Of a stretch of DNA of 64,000 nt, positions 9,495-44,044 are shown one piece after another. The notes below the pieces were generated by a model that searched no databases, was not told the DNA's origin, and worked only from the letters and a program-made list of their open reading frames with translations. Made by a program: the position numbers and the translations under genes. The stretch is from an uncultured Eubacterium sp. (GTDB taxonomy: Bacteria > Bacillota > Clostridia > Oscillospirales > Acutalibacteraceae): the NCBI GenBank assembly GCA_934561395.1, contig CAKTGF010000004.1, forward strand, positions 170,936-234,935, read 5' to 3'. Every line of letters begins with the position of its first letter. Within the stretch, counting starts at the first letter, position 1.

Positions 9495-10574
9495 ATGACA
9501 GAAAATAAAGAAATTTACATTTGCCTTGAAAACGGTCAAACATTTAAGGGCTACAGCTTTGGTGCGGAAAGCGATGTAATAGGCGAGCTTGTTTTCACAA
9601 CGGGTATGGGCGGTTATATCGAAACCCTGACCGACCCCAGCTATTACGGACAGATTGTAATGCAAACCTTCCCCCTTATCGGCAACTACGGCATGATAAG
9701 CGAGGATATGGAAAGCAAAAAATCCTATGTAAGCGCCTATGTTGTAAGAGAAAAGTGCGATAACCCGTCAAATTTCAGATGTGAGGGCACACTTGAGAAC
9801 TTTTTAAAGGAAAACAATATAGTGGGCGTTTACGGCGTTGACACAAGGGAGATTACAAAAATTATCCGTGAAAGCGGCGTTATGAACGCACAAATCACAA
9901 CCAACCCAAATAAGGTTGATTATGAAAAAATAAAGGAATACAAGGTAACAAAGGCTGTTGAAAGCGTTTCAACCCACAAGCCCGAGCTTTCACCCAGCAA
10001 GGAACACAAATTTAATGTTGTGCTACTTGACTACGGCGCAAAAAAGAACATTATCAGAGAGCTTAACAAGCGTGGCTGCAATGTGGCGGTTATGCCATAC
10101 AACACCAAAGCCGAGGATATCTTAAAATTAGGCGTTGACGGCGTTATGCTTTCAAACGGCCCCGGCGACCCCGGCGAAAACACCGAGGCTGTGGAGGAGC
10201 TTAAAAAACTTATAGGCAAGGTGCCCATTTTCGGAATTTGCCTTGGCCATCAGCTTTTGGCACTGGCTATGGGCGGCGAAACCACAAAGCTTAAATACGG
10301 CCACAGAGGCGTTAACCAGCCTGTTAAAAACCTTGAAACAGGCAGAACCTACATTTCGTCCCAAAACCACGGCTATGCGGTGGTTAGCGAAAGCGTTGAA
10401 AAAAGTGGCGGCGTTATTATGTATGTTAACGCTAACGACAACACCTGCGAGGGTGTGGATTACCCTGACAAAATGGCATTTTCGGTACAATTTCATCCGG
10501 AGGCTTGCTCAGGCCCGCATGACACACAGTTTATTTTTGACAAATTTATTAAAATGATGGGAGGTAACAAATAA
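9495..10574 (+). CDS. carA: Carbamoyl-phosphate synthase small (glutaminase) subunit
   Basis: 359 aa with the class-I GATase 'GICLGHQ' catalytic Cys motif. The stop overlaps the carB start. Confidence 0.9.
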   Translation: MTENKEIYICLENGQTFKGYSFGAESDVIGELVFTTGMGGYIETLTDPSYYGQIVMQTFPLIGNYGMISEDMESKKSYVSAYVVREKCDNPSNFRCEGTLENFLKENNIVGVYGVDTREITKIIRESGVMNAQITTNPNKVDYEKIKEYKVTKAVESVSTHKPELSPSKEHKFNVVLLDYGAKKNIIRELNKRGCNVAVMPYNTKAEDILKLGVDGVMLSNGPGDPGENTEAVEELKKLIGKVPIFGICLGHQLLALAMGGETTKLKYGHRGVNQPVKNLETGRTYISSQNHGYAVVSESVEKSGGVIMYVNANDNTCEGVDYPDKMAFSVQFHPEACSGPHDTQFIFDKFIKMMGGNK

Positions 10575-13500
10575 TGCCTCTTGATAAAAGCATAAAAAAG
10601 GTACTTATGATTGGCTCAGGGCCGATAGTTATCGGTCAGGCTGCGGAATTTGACTACGCAGGCGCACAGGCCTGCCGTGTTTTAAGGGATGAGGGCATTG
10701 AGGTTGTGCTTATCAACTCTAACCCTGCAACAATTATGACTGACAATGCCCTGGCAGACCATATTTACCTTGAACCTTTAACGGAAGGAACCGTAAAGCG
10801 TATAATCGAAATTGAACGCCCGGACTCAATATTATGCGGCCTTGGGGGTCAAACAGGACTTACCATCGGCATGCAGCTTGCTAAAGACGGCTACCTTGAC
10901 CAAATGGGCGTTAGGCTCCTTGGCACAAACGCCGAGGCTATTGATAAAGCTGAGGACAGGCAAATGTTCCGTGACACAATGGTTAAGCTTAACCAGCCCG
11001 TTGTGCCCAGCGACATTGCAAACGACCTTGAAACTGCAAAAAAAATCGCCGACGAAATCGGCTACCCTGTTATTATTCGCCCGGCATTCACATTGGGCGG
11101 TGCTGGCGGCGGCGTTGCTTACAACAGGCAGGAGCTTGACATTATTGCCAAAAACGGCTTAATGCTCTCCCCTATCACACAAATTTTGGTAGAAAAATAT
11201 ATCGCAGGCTGGAAAGAAATTGAGTTTGAGGTTATGCGTGACCATATCGGCAATGTAATTGCCGTGTGCTCAATGGAAAACTTTGACCCTGTAGGAGTGC
11301 ACACCGGCGACAGCATTGTAATTGCTCCGGCTGTTACCCTTTCTGATAAGGAGTACCAAATGCTCCGCTCCGCTTCACTTGACATTATCACGGAGTTAGG
11401 CATTGAGGGCGGCTGCAACTGCCAATTTGCCCTTAACCCCGAAACCTTTGAATACAGCGTTATTGAGGTTAACCCCAGAGTTTCACGGTCGTCTGCGCTG
11501 GCGTCAAAGGCAACAGGCTACCCAATTGCAAAGGTAACAACAAAAATTGCCTTGGGCTACACCCTTGACGAAATTAAAAACGATGTAACAGGCAAAACCT
11601 GCGCTTGCTTTGAACCAACCCTTGACTATGTTGTTGTTAAGGTGCCCAAATGGCCCTTTGACAAATTTGTTCAGGCATCACGCAAGCTTGGCACACAAAT
11701 GAAGGCAACAGGCGAGGTTATGAGCATTGCCCCAACCTTTGAGGCTGCAATAATGAAAGCGGTCAGAGGTGCGGAAATCGGCCTTGACACATTAAACAAC
11801 AAGGCAATAAGCAGCGATAATTTAACAGAGCAACTCCACAGGCAGGACGATTTAAGGCTGTTCACTGTGTTTAAGGCTCTCCAAAACGGTATTTCCGTTG
11901 ATGAAATCCACAACATAACCATGATTGACGAGTGGTTTTTATACAAGCTTAAAAATCTTGTGGAATATGAAAAGGAAATTGCGGGAAATCCACTTTCAAA
12001 GGAGCAGTATTTAAGGGGTAAGAACTATGCCTACCCCGATAAGGCACTTGAAAGAATAAGCGGCTATCCCCTTGCCTTTCATCAAAACTGCGTTTATAAA
12101 ATGGTTGACACCTGCGGCGCGGAATTTGCCGCAGAAACACCATACTTTTATTCAACATACGATGAACACTGCGAATCAAGAGCCCTTGAAAAATCAGGCA
12201 AGGATAAAATTATTGTTCTCGGCTCGGGCCCTATAAGAATAGGTCAGGGCATTGAGTTTGACTACTCCTCGGTTCACTGCGTTTGGACATTAAAGGAGCT
12301 GGGCTACGAGGTTATACTTGTTAACAACAACCCCGAAACCGTATCAACCGACTTTGACACAGGCGACAGGCTTTATTTTGAGCCCCTGTGCGAAGAGGAT
12401 GTAATGAACATTATTAAGGCTGAAAACCCAATAGGCGTTGTAGTTGCGTTCGGCGGTCAAACCGCAATCAAGCTTACAAAATTTTTGGATGAAAACGGCA
12501 TTAAGATTTTGGGCACCTCTGCCGAATCAATTGACATTGCGGAGGACAGAGAGCGCTTTGACGAGTTGCTTGAAAGCTTTGGTATATGCAGACCCAAGGG
12601 CACATCGGTTATGACCCTTGACGAGGCGCTGAATGCCGCCAACACGCTTGAATACCCTGTTCTTCTTCGCCCAAGCTATGTAATCGGCGGTCAGAATATG
12701 ACCATTGCATACACAGACGATGATGTTAAGCAGTATATGTCAATAATTCTTGCGCAAGGCATTGAAAACCCTGTGCTGGTTGACAAATATATGATGGGAA
12801 CAGAACTTGAGGTTGACTGTATAAGCGACGGCAAGGATGTGCTTATTCCCGGAATAATGGAGCATATTGAGCGTGCCGGCGTTCACAGCGGCGACAGCAT
12901 AGCTGTATATCCGCCATACAATCTTAACGATATGATGCTGGAAAAAATATGCGATATTTCACAAAAGCTTGCACTTTCGCTGGGAACAAAGGGCCTTGTT
13001 AACATTCAATATTTAATTTACAGAAACGAGCTTTATGTTATTGAGGTTAACCCCAGAGCGTCACGCACAATACCTTATATCAGCAAGGTTACAGGCGTGC
13101 CTATGGTAGAGCTTGCCACAAAAATTATGGTTGGCTCATCTCTAACTGAATTGGGCTACGGCAAGGGACTGTATCACATTCCCCCGTATTTCGCCGTTAA
13201 GGTGCCTGTATTCAGCTTTGAAAAGCTTAACGATGTTAACTCACAGCTCGGCCCTGAAATGAAATCCACAGGCGAGGTGTTGGGCGTTGGCAAAAACCTT
13301 AAGGAGGCGCTTTTCAAGGGTCTTGTAAGCGCAGGCTTTAATGTTGATGTTAACAAAAACGGCCACGGCGTTCTTATTACCGTTACCAAGCAGGACAGAT
13401 ACGAAATAGTAAACCTTGCCAAAAAGCTTGACGATTTGGGTGCAAAGCTTTGGGCAACCCCTGAAACCGCAAAGGAAATTGCCCGCCTCGGCATTGATGT

Positions 13501-14602
13501 TAATGTTGTTAACAAACTGCAAGACGATAATTCAATTATGAATTTGGTTGAAAGCGGCAAGCTTGACTACATTGTTTACACCGGCAAAAGCGATAAAAAG
13601 TCAATTGCCGATTATATCAAGCTGCACAACCGTGCAAACCAGCTTGGCATTGCCACATTAACCTCACTTGACACAGCAAACGCTTTGGCAGACATAATTG
13701 CATCACGCTACAACCAAAGCAACACAGAGCTTGTGGATATTAACAATATGCGTAAAGAAAAAAGCATACTTAAGTTCTCTAAAATGGAGGGCACCGGGGA
13801 TGACTACATTTTCTTTAATAACCAATGCGGAATTATTACCTGCCCCGAAAGCTTCGCCATTGAATTTTGTGACAGGCATTATTCCATCGGCGGCGACGGC
13901 ATTGTGCTTATTGAAAACAGCACTGTTGCCGACGCTAAAATGAGAATATTCAACCTTGACGGCTCAGAGGGTAAAATGGCAGGAAACTCCATTCGCTCGG
14001 TGGGCAAGTTCCTTTACGATAACGATATTGTTAAAAAGGATAATATGACCATTGAAACAGCTGCAGGCATTAAGCAGCTTAAGCTCTTTACCCGTGAGGG
14101 CAAGGTATCGTCTGTAACGGTTGATATGGGCAAGGTTCAGTTTAAACCCGAGCTGATACCTGTAAGTATTAATAAGAATAAGATTATTAACGAGCCTATC
14201 AGCGTGCTTGATAAGGAATATAACATTACCTGCGTTTCGGTAGGTAACCCCCACTGCGTAGTTTTTGTTGACAATGTTGATAAGGTAGATATTGAAAATG
14301 TAGGCCCTAAGTTTGAAAGCCTTAACATTTTTCCTGAAAGAGTTAATACCGAGTTTGTAAGAGTGGTTAACCCCAACACAATTAAAATGCGTGTTTGGGA
14401 GCGTGGAAACGGCGAAACCCCTGCCTGCGGAACAGGCGCCTGCGCCGCTGTTGCCGCCGCTGTTGAAAACGGCTATTGCAATAAGGGCGAGGATATAATC
14501 GTTAAGCTCCGTGGCGGCGATTTAATCGTTAATTACAGCGACGAAAGAATTACCCTTTCCGGCAACACAAACCTTGTCTATAAAGGCGAAATTGAATATT
14601 AA
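10574..14602 (+). CDS. carB: Carbamoyl-phosphate synthase large subunit fused in frame to a C-terminal diaminopimelate epimerase (DapF) domain
   Basis: 1342 aa, versus ~1060-1075 aa for a typical CarB. Residues ~1-1064 contain the two ATP-grasp halves (including 'EVNPRVSRSSALASKATG'). Residues ~1065-1342 begin 'LKFSKMEGTGDDYIFF' (cf. E. coli DapF 'MQFSKMHGLGNDFMVV') and contain 'GNPHCV' and 'ETPACGTGACAA', the two catalytic-Cys motifs of DapF. There is no stop codon between the two parts. Confidence 0.8.
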   Translation: MPLDKSIKKVLMIGSGPIVIGQAAEFDYAGAQACRVLRDEGIEVVLINSNPATIMTDNALADHIYLEPLTEGTVKRIIEIERPDSILCGLGGQTGLTIGMQLAKDGYLDQMGVRLLGTNAEAIDKAEDRQMFRDTMVKLNQPVVPSDIANDLETAKKIADEIGYPVIIRPAFTLGGAGGGVAYNRQELDIIAKNGLMLSPITQILVEKYIAGWKEIEFEVMRDHIGNVIAVCSMENFDPVGVHTGDSIVIAPAVTLSDKEYQMLRSASLDIITELGIEGGCNCQFALNPETFEYSVIEVNPRVSRSSALASKATGYPIAKVTTKIALGYTLDEIKNDVTGKTCACFEPTLDYVVVKVPKWPFDKFVQASRKLGTQMKATGEVMSIAPTFEAAIMKAVRGAEIGLDTLNNKAISSDNLTEQLHRQDDLRLFTVFKALQNGISVDEIHNITMIDEWFLYKLKNLVEYEKEIAGNPLSKEQYLRGKNYAYPDKALERISGYPLAFHQNCVYKMVDTCGAEFAAETPYFYSTYDEHCESRALEKSGKDKIIVLGSGPIRIGQGIEFDYSSVHCVWTLKELGYEVILVNNNPETVSTDFDTGDRLYFEPLCEEDVMNIIKAENPIGVVVAFGGQTAIKLTKFLDENGIKILGTSAESIDIAEDRERFDELLESFGICRPKGTSVMTLDEALNAANTLEYPVLLRPSYVIGGQNMTIAYTDDDVKQYMSIILAQGIENPVLVDKYMMGTELEVDCISDGKDVLIPGIMEHIERAGVHSGDSIAVYPPYNLNDMMLEKICDISQKLALSLGTKGLVNIQYLIYRNELYVIEVNPRASRTIPYISKVTGVPMVELATKIMVGSSLTELGYGKGLYHIPPYFAVKVPVFSFEKLNDVNSQLGPEMKSTGEVLGVGKNLKEALFKGLVSAGFNVDVNKNGHGVLITVTKQDRYEIVNLAKKLDDLGAKLWATPETAKEIARLGIDVNVVNKLQDDNSIMNLVESGKLDYIVYTGKSDKKSIADYIKLHNRANQLGIATLTSLDTANALADIIASRYNQSNTELVDINNMRKEKSILKFSKMEGTGDDYIFFNNQCGIITCPESFAIEFCDRHYSIGGDGIVLIENSTVADAKMRIFNLDGSEGKMAGNSIRSVGKFLYDNDIVKKDNMTIETAAGIKQLKLFTREGKVSSVTVDMGKVQFKPELIPVSINKNKIINEPISVLDKEYNITCVSVGNPHCVVFVDNVDKVDIENVGPKFESLNIFPERVNTEFVRVVNPNTIKMRVWERGNGETPACGTGACAAVAAAVENGYCNKGEDIIVKLRGGDLIVNYSDERITLSGNTNLVYKGEIEY

Positions 14603-14997: not shown

Positions 14998-15639
14998 ATG
15001 AACGAAAACAATCAACAACCCCAATACCCACAAGGAGAAAATCAACAATTTCAACAAGGGCAGTATTATCAACAACCTGTGTATATGCCCCAGCAGCCTG
15101 TGAAAAAGAAAAAGCCGCTCCATAAAAAGTGGTGGTTTTGGCTAATAATAGTCATTGTAGCTATTGCAATTATATCATCATTGGGTTCACGTGATGACAC
15201 TGCAACAAACGACAATAGTTCCGGTGTTATCAACACATCAGCGGAAAACACAGAGGTTAGTGCATCTGATACAGAAACAACTGAAAATACAACAGAGTCT
15301 ACAACAAAGGAAACCACAACGGAAAAGAAAGTTCCTACCGAATATCATTCCGCCCTTACAAAAGCGCAAACATACAGCGATGTTATGTATATGTCAAAGC
15401 AAGGAATATATGACCAATTAACCTCTGAATACGGCGAAAAGTTTTCAGAGGAAGCTGCAAAATATGCGGTTGAGCATGTCAACGCTGATTGGAATTATAA
15501 TGCATTGCAAAAGGCAAAAACATATCAAGAAGAAATGGCAATGTCCCCTTCAGCAATACATGACCAGCTAACCTCAAGCTATGGAGAGAAATTCACAAAA
15601 AAGCAGGCAGACTATGCAATTGAGCATTTAAACGATTAA
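14998..15639 (+). CDS. Membrane-anchored protein with two Ltp-family (host cell surface-exposed lipoprotein, PF07553-like) repeats and a Gln/Pro-rich N-terminus
   Basis: Q/P-rich residues 1-35, a single TM 'WWFWLIIVIVAIAIISSL', and a Thr/Glu-rich linker. Two repeats of 'Q/TYxxxMAMS..IHDQLTS.YGEKF(S/T)..A.YA(V/I)EH' follow. Confidence 0.6.
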   Translation: MNENNQQPQYPQGENQQFQQGQYYQQPVYMPQQPVKKKKPLHKKWWFWLIIVIVAIAIISSLGSRDDTATNDNSSGVINTSAENTEVSASDTETTENTTESTTKETTTEKKVPTEYHSALTKAQTYSDVMYMSKQGIYDQLTSEYGEKFSEEAAKYAVEHVNADWNYNALQKAKTYQEEMAMSPSAIHDQLTSSYGEKFTKKQADYAIEHLND

Positions 15640-15660
15640 TGCATATTTGCTATAGTTCAC

Positions 15661-15702
15661 AAAAAATCCGAGATTCACTGATTTGTGAATCTCGGATTTT
15701 TT
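15661..15702. terminator. Bidirectional rho-independent terminator
   Basis: A 13-bp perfect stem ATCCGAGATTCAC/GTGAATCTCGGAT flanked by an A6 run and a T6 run. It separates the Ltp-like gene from the convergent glycopolymer operon. Confidence 0.9.
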
Positions 15703-15714
15703 ATAAATATTTAT

Positions 15715-17274
15715 CTAATTTTTCTTTTCCTCATGGTATTCCTGCTCGGTATTAACATTCCAAACAGCGGATTTATCACTTTTGTTATTAACTATTGCGT
15801 CAACGGCCTCAAAGGCGGTTGCCATTGAATGATCCATATTATTATAGCGGTGCTGGCCGTTTCTGCCAATGCAATAAAGGTTATCAAAGCCATTTAAATA
15901 ATCAACAAGCTTATCCATTTCGCTGTAGGTATCAAAATAAGCAGGATATGCCTTTTTAACACGCTCTCTGTGGGAATCAAGCACATTAGCCCTTGAAGAT
16001 ATTACCCCCATTGAAACAAGCTCGTCAACTGCAAGAGAAACACATTCTTCCTCTGTCATATTCCAAAAACTGTCGCCCTCGGTGCAGAAATATTCAAGCC
16101 CAATCCACACGGTATCCTTTGGTTTATTAACCAAATAAGGCGACCAGTTATTGAACACCTGTATTCTACCCAGCTTTACATGGGTATCCTGCACATAAAT
16201 CCAGCAATCGGGCACAATGTTGTTAATGGTTTTAATATCTGTTTTATTTTTAATTTTAAGGGTGTCAACAAGAAGCCCAACGGTTACAAAATCACGGTAC
16301 GGCAGGCCGTCTGCAATGCGCTTAATATCCCCAGGCACATCAAAGCTCATGGAGTCCACCAAATCTTTAACCGGCATTGACGACATTACAATATCGGCAT
16401 TGATTGTGGTTTCCTTACCGTCCTTTAGATAAGTAACTGAGGTCAAGTTGCCGCCGTTACTGTTAACGCCAACCGCCTTTGCATTCATAACAATGCTTGC
16501 GCCGCCGTTTTTAACATCGTCGGCAACCTTTTCCCAAAGCTGACCGGGGCCGTATTTGGGGTAATAAAATTCCTCAATCAAAGAGGTTTCGTCAGACGCC
16601 TTGCCGTTATTAAACAGCTTGCCCAAGGCATTTTTAACAACCTCGCTGACGGAAATGCCCTTTACCCTTTGCTTTCCCCAGCTGGGGTCAATTTGGCTTG
16701 GGTGCCTGCCCCAAAGCTTTTCGGTATAGCCCTCAAAGAAAATTGAATAAAGGGTCTTGCCGAAATGGTTTATATACAAATCCTCAAGGCTGTTTTCCTC
16801 ACGCTTGTGCAGGCAGGAGGCAATGTATGTAACGCCTGATTCAACAGTTCTTTTAAAGCCCATATTAATAAAGGTTTGGGGCTTCATTGAAATGGGATAA
16901 TCGAAAAACTTGTTTAAAAAATATATTCTTGAAACTCGGTTTCTGATAAGAAAAACATTATCCTCTTTTTCAGGGTCGGGTCCACCCGGAGAAAGCCTTT
17001 TTTCCCTGTTTAAAATTTTATCGTCAAAGGCAGGAGCACCCTGAACAGGCAACTTGTCAGCCCACCATTTCATTACCCTTTCATCCTTTGAAAAGAACCT
17101 GTGGCCGCCGATGTCCATTCTGTTGCCGTTATATTTTACGGTTCGTGAAATGCCGCCGATAGCATCGCTTTCCTCAAGAACGGTAATGTTATATTCCCTG
17201 TTACCCTCTTTTAAAAGAGTGTCGGCAGCGGTCAATCCCGCAGGGCCTGCACCGATAATAACTACATTTTTCAT
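15715..17274 (-). CDS. FAD-dependent flavoprotein, UDP-galactopyranose-mutase-like / amine-oxidase fold (long form)
   Basis: N-terminal '[14 protein letters not shown]' dinucleotide fold. '[12 protein letters not shown]' and '[21 protein letters not shown]' resemble the UGM motifs (GPHIFHT; GYTxKQWG). At 519 aa it is longer than the usual ~380-aa UGM. Confidence 0.5.
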
Positions 17275-17280
17275 GGCGAT

Positions 17281-17496
17281 TTATTTCTCCTCATCCTTGG
17301 CGGAAGAAACCGAATAATCAACAATATCATCTTCAATTTCTTTCTTTTCCTCAATATTAAGGGTCTTTTTAACCTTATTTTTAGCACGCCTAAAGACAAT
17401 GCCAACAACGGCGCCCACAGTTATTACCGCACCTGCCACAATTTGTATTGTGTAGCTCATAACAGAAGGGTCAATATACGCTTTATACAGTTCCAT
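17281..17496 (-). CDS. Small single-pass membrane protein (hypothetical)
   Basis: 71 aa with one TM 'IVAGAVITVGAVVGIVF' and a basic/acidic tail. It lies within the operon. Confidence 0.4.
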   Translation of the reverse strand: MELYKAYIDPSVMSYTIQIVAGAVITVGAVVGIVFRRAKNKVKKTLNIEEKKEIEDDIVDYSVSSAKDEEK

Positions 17497-17519
17497 TTTT
17501 ATCTCCCCTTGGCAAAGAA

Positions 17520-17837
17520 TTATTCTTCAATGTCAATATTTTTCTTAACCTTTTTTGATGCCTTTGCGGCAGAAATATATTCGTCAAGGCCCTCGGTATC
17601 AATTTCGCCGGGGTTTTCCATTCCCTTATCAATCATATTATTAAGGGCGTCAAAGCCGTCGGAATATTTATCCTTAACCTGCTGCGAGGCGTTTTTGTTC
17701 ATATCCTCAGAAACATTGTTTGCCAAATCCTTAAGTGAGGATAAAGCGCCCATAAGCTCCTCAGGGGTTGCCTTATCCAAATCCTTTGGCATATTCTTTT
17801 TAACCTGACCGAGAATGTCTGCAAATGAAAATCCCAT
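17520..17837 (-). CDS. Hypothetical soluble acidic protein
   Basis: 105-aa ORF within the operon, tightly spaced with its neighbours. No motif recognised. Confidence 0.4.
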   Translation of the reverse strand: MGFSFADILGQVKKNMPKDLDKATPEELMGALSSLKDLANNVSEDMNKNASQQVKDKYSDGFDALNNMIDKGMENPGEIDTEGLDEYISAAKASKKVKKNIDIEE

Positions 17838-17840
17838 GAT

Positions 17841-19898
17841 TTACTCCTTATTCTGCTTTTGTTTTTTTATTAATTGCTGAATTATATATTTACCTGCAAC
17901 CTCGCCGTTTTTGCCGAAATTGGAAATATATGTGTTGCGAATGTTAAGTATTTTATCGGCATAGCTGTCCTTTTGCTCCAAAAGGCTCTGCGCCGCATTA
18001 TATGCCTTGCCTGCCTCGTTAACCTCCAGGCTTATGCCAACCTCATTTCTAAGCTTAATTTCCAAAGGCTCAATGCCGATTTGCTTATATTCCTTGTTCA
18101 TAACCTTCATGGGCGTGTTAATAAACAAGCAGGGCTTTAGGGTTACATAGGAATATTCAAAGGCAATTGCCGACCAATCGGTAATCAGCAGGTCTGACTG
18201 ATAAATTGAGTCGCTTGATGTGAAATCAAGCTCAAATTTTAAATCGTCGCCCTTATAGTCAGAGTATTTTTTAACAATTGCGTCAAGCCTTTGCGAATAA
18301 CGCTTAACATATTCGGGATGTGGGCGAACAATAATGTTAAGCCCCTTTCCCAAAAGGGAGGATAAAAGCTCATCCAGGCAAAGGTCAAGAATATTATCCT
18401 CCTGCCAGGAGGGTGCAACAAGCACCCGGGGTGTGCCCCCCTCTCGCCTTGGCATTTGGTCATACTGCTGCTTTAAAATCTCCAAAAAGCCGTAGCCTGC
18501 CATAACAAGGTTCTTTGGCGGTAGATTATAAATCTCCTCCTGCCTGCGGATTTCGGGAATTTGGAACTCACCTATGCAGAAGATAGTATCATAGCTGTCA
18601 AGGCTGTGGTTATTAAGCAAAAGGTGCGTGCTCATAGGGCCGTGCATAGTATAAATATACTCAATATCCTTGCGGATATATGAACGTTTGTAATGGAAAT
18701 TTTCAATATCCGGCATTGTCATTAAAACAATGTCAGCATCCATTTTCATAAACAGGGTTATAAGCTTTTTTTCGCCGATAAAATAGGGCCTTATCTTTGA
18801 ATTTTCCTTGGCTAAATTAAAAATATTATCATTAGGGTCGCTTGTAACATAATGGATAATAATATTTGAATTATTCAGTAAGTAATCAATAATTGTGCTG
18901 AAATATTTGTAATAGCCGTTCCGCTCGGAATAAATAACAAGGTGCTTGTTTGCAACGGAAAAGAATTTTTTATAATCTGCCTTTTCACGCCTGTAAAGCT
19001 GGCTGCCTACCTCAATTTTATTTTTTTGGCCCACGGAATCAATTTTTTCAAGCTCTTTTTTACTTTCCTCAAGAGCCTTATAGTCAATATATTTTTTAGG
19101 GTTTATTATTGCATTTAAAACCAGCTGTTGAACCATTGTGAACAGGTTGCTGAAAATCCAGTAAAGGCCGATGCCTGCCGGCACAAAGCCGCCGAGAACA
19201 AGTGAAATGCCAACCGAAAGTGCATTTGTAGCCAGCTGCTGAGCCCTGCCCTGCTCCGCCTGCAAGGGGTTCATTTTGTTTTGAAACAAGCACAGTGCCA
19301 AAGCGCAGCCCCCTGCTAAAACCGGAACCAAAAGCATTATTCCCCCTGCCGCAATAGGTGTGGAGGATAAATCAAAGCCCAAAAAGTTCATATCAAGGGC
19401 TTTTATTGCCGACAAATCGGTGCCGTCAACCGTAAATCCCTCCTGTATCGCTTTTACAACCGCAAGCTGAATTGAATTTGAGCTGCTGTCAAGTCCCATG
19501 CCGGCACAAACGGAATTAATAAGCGCCGAAGCGGTATTTTTATCCATAGCAAGCACATTGCTCAAGGGATTATAAATAATTTGAACAACGCACATTAACA
19601 GCACAAGCTGAATAACCATGGGCAGCATGCCTGCCAATGGGCGATATTTTTCTCTTTTATAAAGGCTTAACTGCTCCTCTGAAATTTTATCTTTTTCGCC
19701 GTAGTATTTGGCTTTAATCACATTAAGCTCGGGCTGGAGCTTAACAAGTTTTACAGAATTTTTATGGGTCCATAAGGAAACAGGAAGCATAACAACCTTT
19801 GTCAGCAGGGTAAATAAAATTATTGCCAGCCCGTAGTTTGACAGCAGGTTGTAGCAAAGCCGCATTATGTAACCGAAAGGATACGCTAAATACTCCAT
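17841..19898 (-). CDS. Fusion protein: N-terminal YidC/Oxa1-family membrane insertase domain plus C-terminal CDP-glycerol glycerophosphotransferase (TagB/TagF-like) domain
   Basis: Residues ~1-280 contain 'LQPELNVIKAKYYGEKDKISEEQLSLYKREKYRPLAGMLPMVIQLVLLM', matching the YidC/SpoIIIJ conserved region (LQPEM..KY....Q.E...LYK..G.NPLAGCLP..IQ). Residues ~300-685 contain 'YIYTMHGP', 'LVAPSW' and 'IVRPHP', the Glyphos_transf-type blocks of TagF-like enzymes. Confidence 0.65.
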   Translation of the reverse strand: MEYLAYPFGYIMRLCYNLLSNYGLAIILFTLLTKVVMLPVSLWTHKNSVKLVKLQPELNVIKAKYYGEKDKISEEQLSLYKREKYRPLAGMLPMVIQLVLLMCVVQIIYNPLSNVLAMDKNTASALINSVCAGMGLDSSSNSIQLAVVKAIQEGFTVDGTDLSAIKALDMNFLGFDLSSTPIAAGGIMLLVPVLAGGCALALCLFQNKMNPLQAEQGRAQQLATNALSVGISLVLGGFVPAGIGLYWIFSNLFTMVQQLVLNAIINPKKYIDYKALEESKKELEKIDSVGQKNKIEVGSQLYRREKADYKKFFSVANKHLVIYSERNGYYKYFSTIIDYLLNNSNIIIHYVTSDPNDNIFNLAKENSKIRPYFIGEKKLITLFMKMDADIVLMTMPDIENFHYKRSYIRKDIEYIYTMHGPMSTHLLLNNHSLDSYDTIFCIGEFQIPEIRRQEEIYNLPPKNLVMAGYGFLEILKQQYDQMPRREGGTPRVLVAPSWQEDNILDLCLDELLSSLLGKGLNIIVRPHPEYVKRYSQRLDAIVKKYSDYKGDDLKFELDFTSSDSIYQSDLLITDWSAIAFEYSYVTLKPCLFINTPMKVMNKEYKQIGIEPLEIKLRNEVGISLEVNEAGKAYNAAQSLLEQKDSYADKILNIRNTYISNFGKNGEVAGKYIIQQLIKKQKQNKE

Positions 19899-19908
19899 AA
19901 CTCCCCCA

Positions 19909-21654
19909 TCAATACCACTGATAATCAGATTTTATACGCTCGGCTATTTTCCAATTTGAAATATCCGTGGCGTCGCCCTCAATTGAATATTTGTTAAAGC
20001 AAAGCTTGTGCTCTGCCGGGCTGTAAACAGATTGATAAAAAGTTCTGCAGACATTTTCATTTTCGCCTATGTCAAAAACTCCCCTGCCGTAGCTGTTTTC
20101 GGTCTTTAAGCCTGCATCCTTAACAATTGTGGGGATTATATCGGCGGCGGAAACCTGGGCGTGTGAAACCGAAGAGCCCTCGGTATCTGTATTTCTCGGC
20201 TTAACCATAATGCAGGTTTTAACGCCGCTTTCAACCTGAGCGTCCAAATCCTCGGTTTCGGTGTATGGAATACCGTGGTCACCTGCAATTATAATTGTTG
20301 AATTGTCATAAACGCCCAGTTCTTTAAGCTGGTTTAAATATTCGTAAACCAATTTAAAACTGCCCTTTGTTTGGGATAATGAGGTTGCGTTTTCTGTTCT
20401 CTCGCAGTTTTCGTCAAGAACAAAGGGTGTGTGGCAGCCGTGAAGATACAAAAATGTGTAATTTTTATCGCTGCCTGAATCGCTTAAATTGTTTTCAGTG
20501 ATTAAATCGTAAAGTTTGGCGTCGTCATTAGCGTAAATGCCGTTTTCGCAGTTAAGCTTTGACAGATTGTTAGTTCTGCCGGTGTTTGCGTTTTCATACA
20601 TCTGACTTGTTAAGGTCATTGAAAATGAGCGTGCAAAGGAAAGTTCAGTTAAATATTTGAATATATCGGTTTTATTTGGGGTGTAGCCCTCAACCTTTTC
20701 AACATTATCGGCAATTCCGTTAAAGCTTGACGCATCGGAATAAACATAATATCTGTCGGCATAAACGCTTACGCTGTAGCCGTTATTTTTTAAATCCTTT
20801 AAAAACGGCGAGGTTTGGTATGCCTCGTCAAAATACTCGGTGGGCGAGCATTGCAGGCTGTATTCAACGCCGGAAATCATATAGGGCACACCGGGAAATG
20901 TGCGGGTATACATTGATGTGGCGTTGTCAAAAATCGTAAAGCCGTCAAGATCGTCAAAAAAGCTTGGGTCATCCTTAATAACATTTTCGTAATAAGTGGT
21001 ATCAAATCTGTCAAACAATATGTAAATGATATTTTCCTTTTCCGACGCCTTGGTAATATCCTTTTGCGACAGCACATATTCGGTATTTATTCCCTTATCG
21101 GAAAACAGGTTGTATTTGGTAAAATCGGTAACAAGGCTTGCACCGTTCATTACTATGAGCAAAACGCTTAAGTAAATAACAACCTTTTTCCAAACATTCA
21201 TCAGCAGCCCTGAAACAAGAACTATTGCCAGAATAATTATAACATAAATTATAAATGACAGAACAAGGTCGCCGTAGCTTGCGTTTTTAGCGTCGCCCGA
21301 AACAACGGTAACAGCCTTAACGCACAGGTTATCAAAATAGCTGGCAACTATAATTGAAAAAGCAAGAGCTGAAAGCATATTCAGCAAATATCTGTTAAAC
21401 AGCATTAAAAAGCCAAACAGCAGTGCAAAGCCTATAACAAAGCTTAACACCACCAAGCCGATTATATCGCTGAAAGAAAAGGCAAACTCACGCATATTAT
21501 TTGCGTAAATATCAATAGGACCGAAAAGTAAAAATACAAAGGACATTGTAAGTGAGGTCAAAGCCGCAATTATTGCCTTTTCCTTTGTTGAATATTTACT
21601 GAATTTTGGTTTTGAGGAATTTTCTTTGTCTTTCTCTGCTTTACCGAATTTCAT
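19909..21654 (-). CDS. LtaS-like polyglycerolphosphate transferase / sulfatase-family membrane protein
   Basis: A 5-TM N-terminal region followed by an extracytoplasmic alkaline-phosphatase-like domain ('LYLHGCHTPF', 'IIIAGDHGIP'). Confidence 0.6.
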   Translation of the reverse strand: MKFGKAEKDKENSSKPKFSKYSTKEKAIIAALTSLTMSFVFLLFGPIDIYANNMREFAFSFSDIIGLVVLSFVIGFALLFGFLMLFNRYLLNMLSALAFSIIVASYFDNLCVKAVTVVSGDAKNASYGDLVLSFIIYVIIILAIVLVSGLLMNVWKKVVIYLSVLLIVMNGASLVTDFTKYNLFSDKGINTEYVLSQKDITKASEKENIIYILFDRFDTTYYENVIKDDPSFFDDLDGFTIFDNATSMYTRTFPGVPYMISGVEYSLQCSPTEYFDEAYQTSPFLKDLKNNGYSVSVYADRYYVYSDASSFNGIADNVEKVEGYTPNKTDIFKYLTELSFARSFSMTLTSQMYENANTGRTNNLSKLNCENGIYANDDAKLYDLITENNLSDSGSDKNYTFLYLHGCHTPFVLDENCERTENATSLSQTKGSFKLVYEYLNQLKELGVYDNSTIIIAGDHGIPYTETEDLDAQVESGVKTCIMVKPRNTDTEGSSVSHAQVSAADIIPTIVKDAGLKTENSYGRGVFDIGENENVCRTFYQSVYSPAEHKLCFNKYSIEGDATDISNWKIAERIKSDYQWY

Positions 21655-21800
21655 TTATTACTCCCAAATACCGACAGTAATTTGTGCACCAAGCACGAGG
21701 CTGTCTTTAGATAATATATTGATTATAGCATAAATACACAAATCAGTAAAGAAAGTTTATTAATAATTTACAGTAATTATGTAATATGCACAAATAAACA

Positions 21801-21831
21801 TAAAAAAGACCGACTGATTAAACAGTCGGTC
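21801..21831 (-). terminator. Rho-independent terminator of the radical SAM gene
   Basis: A GACCGACTG/CAGTCGGTC stem. On the minus strand it is followed by a T-run (A-run 21801-21807 on the plus strand). Confidence 0.75.
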
Positions 21832-27767: not shown

Positions 27768-27800
27768 AAAAAATACCGAGGCACGCCTCGGTATTTTTTT
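27768..27800. terminator. Bidirectional rho-independent terminator
   Basis: A TACCGAGGC/GCCTCGGTA stem flanked by an A-run and a T-run. It lies between ldh and the convergent IspD/TarI-like gene. Confidence 0.85.
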
Positions 27801-28455
27801 ATTTATGTTTTTTTGCTGTGAGGAAGGCCTCAAGGTATTTTAAGTCCTCGGGATATGTAAGCTTAAAGTTATTGTTAAAATCGAAATAAAGCTTAATTGG
27901 GGCGCTTTCAGGCAGCTGCTGCGTAACCTCCGTAAGCTTGGAGCATTCGTCAAAGTGCTCATAAAGCAAATTGAAATCAAAGCCCTCGGGAGATTGCATT
28001 AAATAATACCTTTCCCTATCCACCTTTTGGAAATCGTAACAGCCCAGAGAATCTGTAATCTTTTGGGCGGTTACAACTGCGGAGTAATCGTTAAGGTATT
28101 CAAAATAGCTGTCGATATGTTCGCTTGTTACCATTGGCCTTACAGCGTCGCAAACAATGAGCTTTTTGCAGCTGTAATTGCCGTGAATATAATCAAGAAC
28201 ATTTTTAAGGGTTTTATTTCTTGTATCTCCGCCCTGAATTAAATCAATATTGCCTGCCCTGCAAATATCCTCAAGATAAACACTGTTGGCTTTAACATCG
28301 GTGGCAATAACCAATTTATCGGTGCTGTTTGAATTTAAAACAGAGTCAATAACATATTCAATTATCATTTTATCGCAAACCTTGGCGAACTGCTTTGGAA
28401 TTTCAGCACCGAAACGAGCGCCCACGCCGTTTGCAAGAATAGCAACTATGTTCAT
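27799..28455 (-). CDS. IspD/TarI-family sugar-(alcohol)-phosphate cytidylyltransferase
   Basis: 'ILANGVGARFGAEIPKQF' matches the IspD/TarI glycine-rich CTP-binding motif. It is the last gene of the rmlAB operon, not an MEP-pathway context. Confidence 0.65.
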   Translation of the reverse strand: MNIVAILANGVGARFGAEIPKQFAKVCDKMIIEYVIDSVLNSNSTDKLVIATDVKANSVYLEDICRAGNIDLIQGGDTRNKTLKNVLDYIHGNYSCKKLIVCDAVRPMVTSEHIDSYFEYLNDYSAVVTAQKITDSLGCYDFQKVDRERYYLMQSPEGFDFNLLYEHFDECSKLTEVTQQLPESAPIKLYFDFNNNFKLTYPEDLKYLEAFLTAKKHK

Positions 28456-28461
28456 AATTTT

Positions 28462-29481
28462 TTACCTGTCAGAATACATTTTTTCGTAATAGCTTTGGTA
28501 TTCCCCTGAAATAATATTCTCCCACCAGGGCTTGTTTTGCAAATACCAATCTATGGTTTTTTTAATTCCGTCGTCAAACCTTGTTTGCGGCAACCAGCCA
28601 AGCTCGTTATGTATTTTTGCGGGGTCGATAGCATAGCGCATATCGTGGCCGGGTCTGTCGGTAACAAAGGTAATAAGCGATTCGGGCTTGTTAAGGTGTT
28701 TTAATATTGCCTTAACCACCTGCAAATTGGTTCTTTCGTTATGGCCGCCCACATTATAAACCTGGCCTACTCTGCCCTTGCGCATTACCAAATCAATGGC
28801 TGAGCAATGGTCCTCAACATAAAGCCAGTCACGCACATTTTCCCCGGTGCCGTAAACAGGCAGGCTTTGGTCTGCAAGAGCCCTGCTGATAATCAGCGGT
28901 ATCAACTTTTCGGGGAAATGATAGGGGCCGTAGTTATTTGAGCACCTTGTTATTGAAACCGGCAAGCCGTAGGTTCTGTAATAAGCCAGCACCAACAAAT
29001 CTGCCCCTGCCTTTGATGATGAATATGGGGAGGAGGTGTGAATAGGCGTTTCCTCGGTAAAGAAAAGGTCAGGTCTGTCAAGGGGCAAATCGCCATATAC
29101 CTCGTCGGTGGAAACCTGATGGTAGCGCTTAATGCCGTATTTCCTGCAAGCGTCCATAAGTACCTGAACGCCCATAATATTTGTTTTTAAAAAAATTTCG
29201 GGATTTTCTATTGAGCGGTCAACATGGGATTCTGCGGCAAAATTAACCACAATATCCGGCTTATGTTCCTCAAACATCTTGTTGATGGCGTTGCGGTCGG
29301 CAATGTCGGCCTTAACAAAGGTAAATGAGGGGTTATTCATAACAGGCTCAAGGGTTTCCAAATTGCCTGCATAGGTTAAGCTGTCAACACAAATAATTTT
29401 ATCCTCGGGATGATTTTTCAGCTGATAAAATATAAAATTTGAACCGATAAAACCTGCGCCGCCGGTAACAACTATATTCAT
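28462..29481 (-). CDS. rfbB: dTDP-glucose 4,6-dehydratase
   Basis: 'VTGGAGFIGSNF' and the 'YxxxK' short-chain-dehydrogenase catalytic context ('YSSSKAGAD'). Confidence 0.9.
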   Translation of the reverse strand: MNIVVTGGAGFIGSNFIFYQLKNHPEDKIICVDSLTYAGNLETLEPVMNNPSFTFVKADIADRNAINKMFEEHKPDIVVNFAAESHVDRSIENPEIFLKTNIMGVQVLMDACRKYGIKRYHQVSTDEVYGDLPLDRPDLFFTEETPIHTSSPYSSSKAGADLLVLAYYRTYGLPVSITRCSNNYGPYHFPEKLIPLIISRALADQSLPVYGTGENVRDWLYVEDHCSAIDLVMRKGRVGQVYNVGGHNERTNLQVVKAILKHLNKPESLITFVTDRPGHDMRYAIDPAKIHNELGWLPQTRFDDGIKKTIDWYLQNKPWWENIISGEYQSYYEKMYSDR

Positions 29482-29483
29482 TT

Positions 29484-30377
29484 TCAGTCCTCCTCGTGCA
29501 TTGCTTCATCGGCAACATTGTGAAGATATTTGCCGTAATCCGATTTGCCGTATTTTTCGGCAGATTTAAGCAGCTGCTCCCTGTCGATTATGCCCTTGCG
29601 AAAGGCAATTTCTTCGGGAGCTGAAATTCTGATTCCCTGCTGGTTTTGAATTGTTTTTACAAAATTACCGGCATCAATAAGGCTGTCCATAGTGCCGGTA
29701 TCAAGCCAGGCAAAGCCCCTGCCCAACAGCTTAACATCAAGCTGATTTTCATTAAGGTAAAGGCTGTTTAAATCGGTAATTTCAAACTCTCCCCTTGCAG
29801 ACGGGCTTAAACCCTTGGCAAATTCAACACAGCGGTTATCGTAAAAGTAAAGGCCGGTAACCGCCCAGGGAGATTTTGCTTTTTCAGGCTTTTCCTCAAT
29901 AGAAATAACCCTGCCATTTTGGTCAAATTCTATAATACCGAAGCGCTCCGGGTCCTCAACATGGTAGCCGAAAACCGTCGCCCTGCCATTAATCAAAGCG
30001 TTTTCCTTAGCCTGGGTAAGCAGCTTGCTGAGCCCTGCTCCGTAAAAAATATTGTCGCCTAAAATCATGGCGCAGCAATCGTCGCCGATAAAATCCTCGC
30101 CGATAACAAAGGCCTGTGCCAAGCCGTCCGGCGAGGGCTGCTCTTTATATGAAAGCTTAACGCCGTATTGGCTGCCGTCCCCCAAAAGCTTTTTAAAATT
30201 AGGCAAATCCTCGGGGGTGGAAATAATCAAAATATCGTCAATGCCTGCAAGCATAAGTGTGCTGAGAGGATAATAAATCATCGGCTTGTCATAAACCGGT
30301 AAAAGCTGCTTTGATGCAACAAGGGTTAAGGGATAAAGCCTTGTTCCCGAGCCGCCTGCTAAAATTATACCCTTCAT
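29484..30377 (-). CDS. rfbA: Glucose-1-phosphate thymidylyltransferase
   Basis: '[18 protein letters not shown]' and '[17 protein letters not shown]', the RmlA signatures. Confidence 0.9.
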
Positions 30378-30379
30378 AA

Positions 30380-31519
30380 CTAATCTCCTAAACCAAGTTC
30401 TGTAAGTAGCTGTCTTTGTATATCTGCATTACCGCCCCTTGACACTACCTGCCTTGCTGACGATAAAGCCTGCCTGCGCTTTTTTAACACAGCATCAAGC
30501 AATCTGTTAAGCCTTGCCACAGGCAATAACAGCTTGTTTTTGTTGTAATACGGATATGCTTTTTTTAAAAATTCCCTGCTTGGGAACGCAAGCTTTGCCA
30601 GGGTTGAAAGCCTGCTTTTTCCAACTGAATCGACGGGAATTGAATTAACATAATAGCCAAAGCTGCCGCCGTCAAGCATAACGGCGCCAAAGCACTCCTC
30701 CAGCCTGCCGTCAATTTCAAAATCGGCTGAAACAGGGGTGTTAAACCATTTTTTGCACAGTGAAAGGAGCACCCTTGTGCATTGCAGTACCCCTGCGTTT
30801 TCTGCAAGGTGCATTAATTTTTCTTCATCAAAGCCGTTAATGCCTCGGGCCATAGCATCAATATCCATTAACATTCTGACCCCTGCTCCCCTGTATGAAA
30901 GGTGCTTGCACAAATGGCATATAACATAAATCAGCTCGTCATATTCGGACAGGCTGTAATTATAATCATATTTTAAAGCAGAAATATCAAAAATATTGTC
31001 AAAATACGGTGTTTTTAAATCGGCACCGCTATGGAACTCAACTTCCACGCCGCCAATATCAACATTTATAACATTTGTTGAATAATTTTTAATTTTAAAA
31101 TCGGTATTTTTAAGCTGTTTATATACACCGTCAAGGGTGTTTTCTCTTAATATAACATCAATGTCGCCGCTGGTGCGAAGAGCAGGCACAGGGTAATAAT
31201 TTTTAACTGTAACACCCTTAACAAATATATGGTCGATTTTGTTTAAATTCAAAAAATCATCTGTAATTTTTAAAGCACTGCTGCGTTTTTCGTCAGCCTG
31301 CACTGCGTAACCCAGCTGCTGGTTAAAAAGTGACTTTATATTTTCATTTGGCTGATTTTCAGGGGGCAGCAGCTTAATTTGGTTCATTAAAATGCCGCAC
31401 AGGTTATGCTTTTTTGCAAGGGTATATACACTTTGCCAATCAACATTTTCCCCTTTGGGGGCAGTGCCGTTTAAAAAGCTTGCCAGGAGATGAATAAAAT
31501 ATTCTTTTTCAGCTGTCAT
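30380..31519 (-). CDS. Pol-beta-superfamily nucleotidyltransferase of the uncharacterised NTP_transf_5 (PF14907-like) family
   Basis: '[16 protein letters not shown]' is a hG[GS]..D.D nucleotidyltransferase motif, and the protein is ~380 aa. The likely start is MTAEKEYF, which has an AGGAGGGGA RBS. The track ORF begins 60 nt earlier. Confidence 0.6.
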
Positions 31520-31594
31520 TGCATCCCCTCCTAAAAATCGGTATATATTTATTATATTTGCAATATACTGCCAAGTCAAGGAAAAGCAGGCTTG

Positions 31595-36082: not shown

Positions 36083-36157
36083 TTTCAACACCTCGTATTG
36101 ATAAATATAATATTCTGATTTTATTATATCATTACGGAGATATAAAAGCAATCAATA

Positions 36158-41437: not shown

Positions 41438-41573
41438 TATATCACCGAATAACATTATAGCATAATTATTAATTGTTGTAAATTTGTGCAAAAAAATATT
41501 ATTTTGCTATTCAATTTTGCAATCTTATCTGCTATAATAGTGCTATTAAAAATTTTGGAGGTAAAGCTCGCCT

Positions 41574-43833: not shown

Positions 43834-43854
43834 TTTAAGCGCCCTCACTTTCGT

Positions 43855-43907: not shown

Positions 43908-44044
43908 TAGGAATTTGTAATTTTTTGTTACTTTTTTGTAACTTGTTGTCGTAACTGAAAAGTATTCCTGCTAAATACTTATGCAAGCTCAATTAAAACT
44001 ATTCCAAATAAAAAAGCCCTATGCAATGCATAGGGTAATTTTTA

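Follow-up and report, generated by a model that had tools for sequence, protein, structure and literature searches.

LtaS, GacH and EptA use the head groups of ordinary phospholipids as donors, and they share with LtaP, OpgB, MCR-1 and PbgA a fold with five transmembrane (TM) segments and an extracytoplasmic domain. Enzymes of the TagF/TagB/TarL group and capsule polymerases of the Cps3D/Bcs3 type have a two-domain fold similar to that of glycosyltransferase B (GT-B) and are located on the cytoplasmic side, and YidC, Oxa1 and SpoIIIJ are built on a core of five TM segments. Insertases, YidC included, scramble lipids (PMC11047089). Extracytoplasmic modification by GtrA/GtrB/GtrC and by CsbB/GtcA/YfhO follows a three-component logic of cytoplasmic lipid loading, small flippase and outward-facing transferase (PMC7389260). 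Here we analyze an operon that joins relatives of LtaS, TagF and YidC. It lies in a stretch of 64,000 nucleotides, hereafter the window, from an uncultured Eubacterium sp. of the Acutalibacteraceae (GenBank assembly GCA_934561395.1, contig CAKTGF010000004.1, positions 170,936 to 234,935 of the forward strand). Five genes, named here A to E, were taken from the list of open reading frames (ORFs):

21654..19909, minus strand: gene A, LtaS-like membrane protein, 581 aa
19898..17841, minus strand: gene B, YidC::TagF-like fusion, 685 aa
17837..17520, minus strand: gene C, soluble helical protein, 105 aa
17496..17281, minus strand: gene D, single-pass membrane protein, 71 aa
17274..15715, minus strand: gene E, flavin adenine dinucleotide (FAD) enzyme similar to UDP-galactopyranose mutase (UGM), 519 aa

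The gaps between consecutive genes are 10 nt (A/B), 3 nt (B/C), 23 nt (C/D) and 6 nt (D/E). Copies of B and of E with identical sequence were recovered from several independent contigs, whose lengths reach 288-605 kb, so that neither the operon nor the YidC-TagF fusion is an assembly artefact: the operon is real. An initial annotation, made from the DNA letters, had given the five minus-strand ORFs, their order and their coordinates exactly, and its LtaS-like, YidC::TagF and UGM-like calls are upheld by the annotation of the ORFs with hidden Markov models (HMMs) and by their folds.

Full-length homologs of B were detected in at least 581 species-level stretches (one genome per species) from Eubacterium-like bacteria, Oscillospiraceae, Lachnospiraceae, Christensenellales, Acutalibacteraceae and other Clostridia. 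We counted the partners of B in the best 80 species-level loci with a B homolog, in which B is 45-66% identical. D is present in 72 of these loci, immediately downstream of B in 58, and A is present in 59, adjacent to B in 53. C was found in none of the 80 loci and E in a single one (L015). The complete five-gene order is restricted to L087 and L085, the closest relatives, with B 96% and 80% identical, respectively, and L086 (69%) has the order A-B-D-E with no C. The conserved unit is therefore A-B-D. The view of the initial annotation that the five genes form one unit failed this co-conservation check, as only A, B and D travel together; its pairing of an LtaS-like with a TagF-like protein is real and strongly conserved.

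Two domains can be delimited in B:

19089..19898, minus strand: YidC domain of B, aa 1 to ~270 (alignment and HMMs)
17844..19001, minus strand: TagF-like domain of B, aa ~300-685 (PF04464 and fold)

The N-terminal domain matches Pfam 60KD_IMP (PF02096; 120.5 bits against a cut-off of 35, 9e-35) and TIGR03592 (115.5 against 84.3 bits, 3e-33), and it remains far under the cut-offs of the NCBIfam equivalog models of housekeeping YidC/SpoIIIJ (for example, 99.6 against 365). The full five-TM core of YidC/Oxa1/SpoIIIJ, the canonical motifs PLAGxLPxxIQ and GLYW..SN...QQ and the positive charge of the groove are all retained. Unlike in these insertases, the groove Arg is replaced by an invariant Lys, a variable extracytoplasmic insert of ~50-70 aa separates TM2 from TM3, an enzyme of 385 aa takes the place of the ribosome-binding tail, and D, a mini-protein similar to Pf3 and M13 coat, accompanies it in 72 of 80 loci. 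In the alignment to the YidC of E. coli and to YidC2 of B. halodurans, the Lys in question, Lys34, falls on the conserved TM1 groove Arg and is invariant (n=66).

The C-terminal domain of B matches Glyphos_transf (PF04464; 39.7 bits against a cut-off of 22.1, 3.8e-10) over aa 482-593, corresponding to profile positions 186-292; in P0484, a fused relative, the match extends over positions 96-349. In the AlphaFold2 (AF2) model of B, which has a predicted local distance difference test score (pLDDT) of 88, the helices of the YidC core are present. Foldseek ranked the TagF-like capsule multienzyme 8qoy (1.1e-9) and TagF 3l7l (1.5e-9) first and second, followed by generic GT-B folds, and it matched the N-terminal part to E. 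coli YidC (6al2, 4e-6). The TM-score against the TagF fold is 0.56 on the target, TagF. A search of the PDB with the sequence profile of B returned YidC and no TagF, and the link to TagF thus relies on Pfam and on the fold. Recognizable motifs of the domain are HG..STH (H419, H425), APSWQ.DN (495-502), RPHPEY (525-530) and ITDWS (572-576). They are invariant or nearly so in the homologs (the last as DWS), and H419, H425 and H527, located in HG..STH and RPHP, are invariant (n=66). As the C-terminus of the YidC core is cytoplasmic in the established topology, the TagF-like domain is placed inside the cell. Profiles and model together show B to be a complete YidC insertase core joined to a predicted cytoplasmic TagF-like GT-B domain. 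What B has in common with the TagF/TagB/TarL and Cps3D/Bcs3-type enzymes is PF04464, the GT-B-like two-domain fold, conserved motifs that contain His and the cytoplasmic location. However, its domain is carried on the C-terminus of a YidC core, whereas theirs is a peripheral membrane protein, and the TagO/TagA/TagD/TagGH context is missing; relatives of B lie instead within operons for phosphonate or LicC-type activation, which suggests donors such as CMP-phosphonates (CMP, cytidine monophosphate) or others.

The only Pfam match of A is the generic Sulfatase model (37.1 bits against a cut-off of 25), and no NCBIfam family, curated LtaS models included, was matched at E<=0.1. Its AF2 model (pLDDT 91.8, predicted template modelling score 0.86) consists of five long helices (~aa 23-181) and an alpha/beta domain with the alkaline-phosphatase fold. 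PbgA (6xlp, 4.5e-10) came first in Foldseek and LtaS (2w5q, 4.6e-9) next, ahead of sulfatases and MCR-1 (PbgA is also known as YejM), and LtaS was the top PDB match (4.6e-12) of a family profile built from 55 homologs. These homologs show no variation at D215, D218, P254, H408, D459 and H460, and the conservation of T252 is 90% or more. The GDH and HxP motifs align with those of LtaS, and T252 corresponds to LtaS T300 by its position in the motif T-F-P...S-G, not by a significant alignment. Compared with the catalytic set of LtaS (E255, T300, D475, H476), the Thr and the metal-ligand motifs are kept, as the LtaS-like call had demanded beforehand. In A, T-F-P...S-G stands where sulfatases have C-x-P-x-R...T-G, and the CxPxR sulfatase motif is absent, which indicates a phosphotransferase with a Thr nucleophile rather than a sulfatase. 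The N-terminus is basic and on the cytoplasmic side; together with the five TM helices this puts the catalytic domain outside. Sequence and model argue for A being a phosphotransferase-like membrane protein of the LtaS/PbgA/EptA kind with an extracytoplasmic domain. It shares with LtaS/LtaP, GacH, OpgB, EptA/MCR-1 and PbgA the five TM segments and extracytoplasmic domain, the Thr position, the Asp/Glu ligand, H-x-P and GDH, but it is only 17-19% identical to the LtaS group and has no NCBIfam LtaS match. Another difference is its genetic linkage, in some cases as a physical fusion, with D and with a TagF-like enzyme of the cytoplasm, and its donor is probably not bulk phosphatidylglycerol. In L083 and L084 (7869-9908), B is preceded by an A-like protein in which PG_binding_1 domains are found beside a faint sulfatase match; these domains suggest that it acts at the cell wall.

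D, which the initial annotation had regarded as operon-specific, is a core subunit of the module and is often fused to A. It has one TM segment followed by a basic and acidic cytoplasmic tail, is predicted to be N-out and exposes YIDPS at the outer interface. Its conserved motif reads A-YIDPS...IQA.AG...A.GA...WRKAKKK...IDEN.KEVE, and neither D nor C matches a Pfam or NCBIfam family. An exhaustive search for D returned 348 representatives at E<=1e-3, and fusions were counted among the best 150 of them. In 35 of these 150, D is N-terminal to a full-length A in a D::A protein of ~700 aa. Two more are single B::D::A chains of ~1330-1360 aa in the order YidC, TagF-like domain, D, A. This triple fusion occurs in the cultured Raoultibacter timonensis (RefSeq WP_244386239.1; contigs up to 4.0 Mb), where its neighbors are uninformative. 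All fusion junctions are topologically compatible with the enzyme domain of B inside and the catalytic domain of A outside. The initial annotation had read the LtaS-like and TagF-like proteins as two alternative routes in one operon. Since the two occur fused in one chain, it is more likely that they act one after the other, each on its own side of the membrane. We are highly confident that A, B and D form one envelope-modification machine.

Many D proteins, and all fusions inspected, have a hydrophobic leader ending in AxA right before YIDPS. The classical YidC-only substrates are the M13 procoat, which has a leader, and the Pf3 coat, which has none, and by analogy D looks like these two. In seven loci, genes for signal peptidase I adjoin genes for leader-bearing D. 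Tandem copies of A were observed in Lachnospiraceae: in Waltera hominis (L039, 10001..17989) the order is B-D-A-A-A, and in L030, L036, L049, L063, L071 and L074 B-D is also followed by two to three A paralogs. These loci have an adjacent signal peptidase I gene and a D leader that looks cleavable between AxA and YIDPS; the enzyme may be a dedicated peptidase for D. We also considered that D might be a covalent carrier whose YIDPS motif is modified on Ser or Tyr by the TagF-like domain prior to translocation. The D::A and B::D::A fusions make this improbable, as their YIDPS is confined to a short loop that connects two membrane segments.

The topology of D, which matches that of the YidC-only substrates whether or not a cleavable leader is present, the signal peptidase I genes beside leader-bearing D in seven loci, and the canonical motifs and groove charge kept in B are what one would expect if the YidC domain simply inserted D and the polytopic A and anchored the TagF-like enzyme. 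The latter would then modify an ordinary lipid-linked precursor exported by another transporter, and A would use common phospholipids. Such a scaffold leaves unexplained why an outward LtaS-type enzyme and a cytoplasmic CMP-dependent transferase are fused into one chain, and why genes for head-group activation lie between them in one operon; moreover, no other exporter is conserved nearby. We consider it quite unlikely.

The activation genes emerged when every ORF lying up to 7 kb from B in any of the 80 loci was clustered and the recurrent clusters were annotated. A nucleotidyltransferase of the LicC/PntC type, that is, one for head groups, is encoded in 34 of the 80 loci. It is accompanied by a helix-turn-helix (HTH) domain in 22 loci. 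A fusion that contains phosphoenolpyruvate (PEP) mutase (TIGR02320, 401 bits) is encoded in 13, mostly as nucleotidyltransferase, cytidylyltransferase-like domain and mutase. Further recurrent neighbors are an iron-dependent alcohol dehydrogenase (Fe-ADH) of the phosphonate type (13 loci), a phosphonopyruvate decarboxylase (Ppd; TIGR03297, 466 bits; 11 loci), a PhnS2/T2/U2-like importer of 2-aminoethylphosphonate (AEP; nine loci) and a fusion of LicC-like and CobD-like domains (four loci: L026, L030, L049, L071). The phosphonate genes can be embedded in the module. L060 has, on one strand, D, B, nucleotidyltransferase, PEP mutase, Fe-ADH, Ppd and A, and L035, also on one strand, has A, B, Ppd, nucleotidyltransferase, PEP mutase, Fe-ADH and D, so that in both the phosphonate genes separate B from A or D, and stop and start codons overlap. 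Variants with AEP import and a nucleotidyltransferase occur in L075-L077, L077 having the order A, B, D, PhnS2T2U2 and nucleotidyltransferase. PEP mutase is present in only ~5% of bacterial genomes (PMC8942020), and its adjacency to the module is thus far beyond chance. CMP-AEP is an activated phosphonate made by PntC enzymes, and tailoring after formation of the C-P bond has been called enigmatic (PMC6697681). With the LicB/LicC/LicD and PntC pathways, relatives of the module share LicC/PntC-type nucleotidyltransferases, PEP mutase fusions and AEP-type importers (PMC6697681). They differ in that no LicD-type transferase accompanies the module, where YidC-TagF and the LtaS-like protein would carry out the transfer, and in that the upstream genes are missing from the window. 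We think it probable that the module handles CMP-activated phospho- or phosphono-head groups.

In L085, the relative with 80% identity, the string of genes begins with an IspD/TarI-like gene and an extended short-chain dehydrogenase/reductase (SDR) gene directly upstream of A. We take this pair to resemble the pathways for CDP-pentitols (CDP, cytidine diphosphate). By analogy with this pair, our best guess for the donor in the window would be a CDP-alditol.

Glycerol phosphate as the substrate, as proposed in the initial annotation, loses ground here, given that relatives carry activation genes for CMP-phosphonate, an IspD/TarI-like gene with SDR, or other genes of the LicC type. In that proposal, the five genes acted as a unit to make a teichoic-acid-like polymer with glycerol phosphate and galactofuranose (Galf), the former arriving by two parallel routes. 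The domain families are as it stated, the five genes form one transcription unit here as well as in relatives whose B is 80-96% identical, and E stands beside the module in one distant locus, L015. On the other side, 79-80 of the 80 loci lack C and E, the window contains neither tagD nor a gene for CDP-glycerol, homologs of E occur mostly in unrelated contexts, and relatives tie the module to phosphonates or other CMP-activated head groups, not to glycerol phosphate specifically. We regard it as very improbable.

We propose instead, tentatively and with slightly less than even confidence in the scheme as a whole, that A, B and D operate as a lipid shuttle, a reading built on sequence and on structural models. 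The head group would be activated in the cytoplasm as a CMP-linked donor, which depending on the lineage could be a CDP-alditol, CMP-aminoethylphosphonate, CMP-hydroxyethylphosphonate or similar. At the cytoplasmic face, the TagF-like domain of B would transfer the phospho- or phosphono-head group to a membrane acceptor, either a diacylglycerol-type lipid or a glycolipid, releasing CMP. The hydrophilic groove of the YidC domain, with its invariant Lys34, would then pass the charged head group to the outer leaflet, where the Thr of A would attack the lipid-linked donor and pass its head group on to an acceptor at the surface, be it a glycopolymer, a glycolipid or the wall. D would be a client of the YidC type and would stay beside A as a subunit. 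The logic would parallel that of Gtr and of CsbB/GtcA/YfhO (PMC7389260), a likeness in logic only and not in homology, as all protein families differ. Moreover, those systems move a sugar, whereas A-B-D would move a phospho- or phosphono-head group and would combine synthase and flippase in one polypeptide.

The same proteins could also work as a synthase-type exporter, in which the TagF-like domain polymerizes poly(alditol-phosphate) or poly(hydroxyethylphosphonate) on a lipid anchor, the YidC groove threads the chain outward in a manner comparable to cellulose and hyaluronan synthases, and A extends, trims or ligates the chain to its final acceptor. The top fold matches of the C-terminus of B, TagF 3l7l and 8qoy, are true polymerases, and no exporter of the ABC (ATP-binding cassette, TagGH-type) or Wzx kind is conserved beside the module. 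Units of glycerol phosphate, ribitol phosphate or hydroxyethylphosphonate have a free hydroxyl and could polymerize, and in 13 loci PEP mutase is accompanied by Fe-ADH and not by an aminotransferase. This does not fit L075-L077 and the loci with the LicC+CobD-like fusion, where AEP and aminopropanol-phosphate, respectively, have no free hydroxyl for chain growth and are not polymerizable, which favors transfer of single units over a polymerase. In addition, YidC is a groove and not a channel, known to pass short hydrophilic segments only, and a polymerase has no obvious need for a fused LtaS-type partner. We therefore judge polymer export unlikely and prefer the lipid shuttle, also because enzymes of the LtaS/EptA type use lipid head groups as donors, because insertases including YidC scramble lipids, and because of the parallel with CsbB/GtcA/YfhO and Gtr. 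In some lineages the machine might build a C-P-linked 'phosphono-teichoic acid'. The most far-reaching form of the model, in which the YidC fold is the transbilayer conduit of a self-contained B-D-A synthase/translocase/transferase for CMP-activated head groups in gut Clostridia and Coriobacteriia, strikes us as doubtful.

Several observations weigh against the lipid shuttle. Three of its parts are inferred: the lipid acceptor, the donor of A and the flipping by the YidC domain. The YidC core of B has every canonical insertase motif, and a plain insertase for A and D would fit it. The catalytic His residues of TagF (H444 and H584 in S. epidermidis) are matched in B at the level of motifs only. 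A is not detectable by tblastn within 10 kb in about a quarter of the loci, partly due to contig ends or to divergent A-like proteins. In 46 of the 80 loci no nucleotidyltransferase is nearby, and the head group may there differ or be made elsewhere. Finally, the operon of the window contains no gene for donor synthesis.

C, which has no TM segment, has homologs only in L087 and L085, of the same lineage, and in L088, where a small ORF (6684-6965) 50% identical to C (2e-24) lies directly upstream of a stand-alone homolog of E. This position indicates that C belongs with E and not with the core. C had been described as specific to the operon; beside the module it is found only in the closest relatives, and the homolog preceding the stand-alone E in L088 lies outside it.

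E belongs to NF005549 (PRK07208.1-5, 'hypothetical protein'; 795 bits). Its closest solved relatives are UGMs (3e-18 with the single sequence, 2.5e-21 with the family profile), and extended, nearly full-length PDB matches were obtained only with the long UGMs of T. cruzi and A. fumigatus. At the UGM active-site positions E has G56-G57-H58, Y183, W188, R203, W358, Y360, R370, Y443, R471, Y477 and N479, and these residues are invariant in 27 family members. Also invariant (n=27) are the segments aligned to 4dsg and 4u8k/4u8l, namely GGH, QRV, CWIY, GR..F.NWSPY, AYP and [14 protein letters not shown]. E therefore retains the UGM catalytic residues on alignment, in agreement with its initial assignment. 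With the long eukaryotic form of Glf from A. fumigatus and T. cruzi it shares the GGH loop, three Arg, the Tyr/Trp set and the FAD motif GxGxxG. It differs from Glf in its separate family, in a score of 32.9 bits against the bacterial UGM model TIGR00031 (cut-off 303.75) with no match to Pfam GLF, and in the Trp that replaces one active-site Tyr (FNNWSPY). By sequence, E appears UGM-like in mechanism and outside the curated UGM family, and it most likely interconverts the pyranose and furanose forms of a nucleotide sugar. A function as a phosphonate-catabolic FAD amine oxidase was ruled out because the complete UGM active-site set is invariant. In this lineage E follows D, and in L015 it directly precedes the module. 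These positions suggest that E serves a glycan of the same envelope structure, for which it most likely makes a nucleotide sugar in the furanose form, UDP-Galf or a similar one. Formation of Galf by E is plausible and is not tied to the core module. C and E together would be a lineage-specific add-on, with C as a small partner of E, and the core machine would need neither.

Elsewhere, homologs of E are mostly found in contexts unrelated to the module, and some of them are followed by a polytopic membrane protein of ~510-540 aa. In L015 (5096-8210) and L089 (7001-10068), the E homolog is followed by an overlapping gene for a polytopic protein of ~510-520 aa that matches no Pfam family; the two proteins are 37% identical to each other and could be furanosyl-transferase or polymerase partners of E. 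L090 (7001-10172) has at the same place after E a 541-aa ORF with no similarity to either of them.

The boundaries of the operon in the window are defined by the following elements:

21831..21808, minus strand: terminator of the preceding radical-SAM gene, upper operon boundary (terminator scan)
21750..21722, minus strand: operon promoter, sigma-70-like, TTTACT-17-TATAAT with extended -10 TG (consensus scan, 10/12 matches)
15658..15705, both strands: bidirectional intrinsic terminator at the operon end, stem 18-21 bp

The promoter is positioned downstream of the upstream terminator and ahead of the start of A, whose ATG is preceded by GGGAG 8 nt on the 5' side. Strong bidirectional terminators had been assigned to both ends, and this holds for the downstream one. 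The hairpin at 15658..15705 (-29.1 and -26.3 kcal/mol, z-scores -10.3 and -8.2 on the two strands) is flanked by A and U runs that give a U-run after the stem on either strand, and it is common to the operon and to a convergent gene for an Ltp lipoprotein. The upstream hairpin at 21831..21808 (stem of 9 bp with six GC pairs, then a T-run; -16.5 kcal/mol, z-score -6.4) has its U-run on the minus strand only, and its bidirectionality is not clear.

Among the scanned ORFs of the window (>=150 aa), none resembles TagD, TagO, LicC or PEP mutase, and tblastn of the window with TagD- and LicC-type probes gave no match, which agrees with the initial statement that tagD and tagO are absent; a few flanking ORFs were judged solely through the Pfam labels of their counterparts in L085 and L087. 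One cytidylyltransferase gene is present outside the operon, ~6 kb from the module:

27799..28455, minus strand: divergent cytidylyltransferase of the IspD/TarI family (Pfam IspD, 96.9 bits)

It scores 117.9 against TIGR00453 (cut-off 181) and 90.8 against the TarI subfamily NF001183 (cut-off 166). A source of donor for the module in this gene is possible. It differs from the IspD/TarI-like gene of L085, and the pair of IspD/TarI-like and SDR genes seen there is absent from the window. The gene ends an operon (27799..31579, minus strand) that comprises NTP_transf_5 (399 aa), RmlA, RmlB and the IspD/TarI-like protein, with no RmlC or RmlD, and whose product may be an unusual activated sugar or alditol. 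We rejected the RmlB-like gene as a counterpart of the L085 SDR: the two are only 23% identical and the L085 SDR resembles enzymes of the UDP-glucuronate decarboxylase type. An ABC transporter at 48349..52385, adjoined by a haloacid dehalogenase (HAD) gene similar to phosphoglycolate phosphatase, was discarded as an AEP importer, as it is of the PotABCD type (spermidine/putrescine).

Other genes of the window deserve mention. On the plus strand (10574..14602), a single 1342-aa reading frame joins the large subunit of carbamoyl-phosphate synthase to a diaminopimelate epimerase domain, complete and C-terminal (Pfam DAP_epimerase, 2.7e-55), and L085 also has a 1342-aa CarB with matching domains. 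To our knowledge, this CarB-DapF fusion is unusual. Convergent with E is a gene (14998..15639, plus strand) for a Gln/Pro-rich membrane-anchored protein with two repeats of the Ltp family (PF07553), of the type known from prophage superinfection-exclusion lipoproteins. On the minus strand, a protein of 1241 aa with Big_2 and fn3 repeats (32426..36151), likely located at the surface, is encoded downstream of a gene for a major facilitator superfamily (MFS) transporter. A homolog of FliB, the flagellin lysine-N-methylase (39424..41491, minus strand; NF038110, 195.6 bits), overlaps an AAA_28 ATPase gene, with no flagellin gene among the annotated ORFs around it. Finally, at 43228..46063 on the minus strand a gene for an S24 (LexA-like) peptidase lies beside one for a 672-aa protein similar to NAD-dependent DNA ligase. 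The domain scores of the latter are rather weak (adenylation domain, 110.8 bits), and it may be a second, divergent LigA paralog.

Public annotations describe the proteins of the module as 'membrane protein insertase YidC', 'sulfatase-like hydrolase/transferase' or hypothetical. In a literature search of incomplete coverage, we found no description of the YidC-TagF fusion, of its pairing with an LtaS-like protein, of the YIDPS mini-protein or of the link to phosphonate operons, and the module is not described in the literature retrieved on PRK07208, on links between phosphonates and teichoic acids, or on Galf and lipoteichoic acid in Clostridia. Each domain belongs to a known superfamily, and the combination is undescribed in searchable papers. 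A widespread fusion of YidC to an enzyme, coupled to an LtaS-like transferase, would surprise specialists.

Clostridia of the gut and rumen carry the module in several hundred species-level genomes or more, and Raoultibacter has it as one fused polypeptide. Should the YidC domain indeed translocate cargo, the finding could be categorically new: B would be the first protein of the Oxa1 superfamily with non-protein cargo as a dedicated function, and the module would supply the missing transfer step of phosphonate tailoring in Gram-positive bacteria. If the lipid-shuttle model is true, it offers a concrete candidate for the route by which nucleotide-activated phosphonates and other head groups reach the Gram-positive surface, it would extend the biology of YidC/Oxa1 from protein insertion to lipid-linked cargo, and it would account for the co-occurrence of LtaS-like and TagF-like proteins in organisms that lack canonical teichoic acid operons. 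Zwitterionic and anionic decorations on the surface of abundant gut commensals bear on immune recognition, phage adsorption and resistance to cationic peptides.

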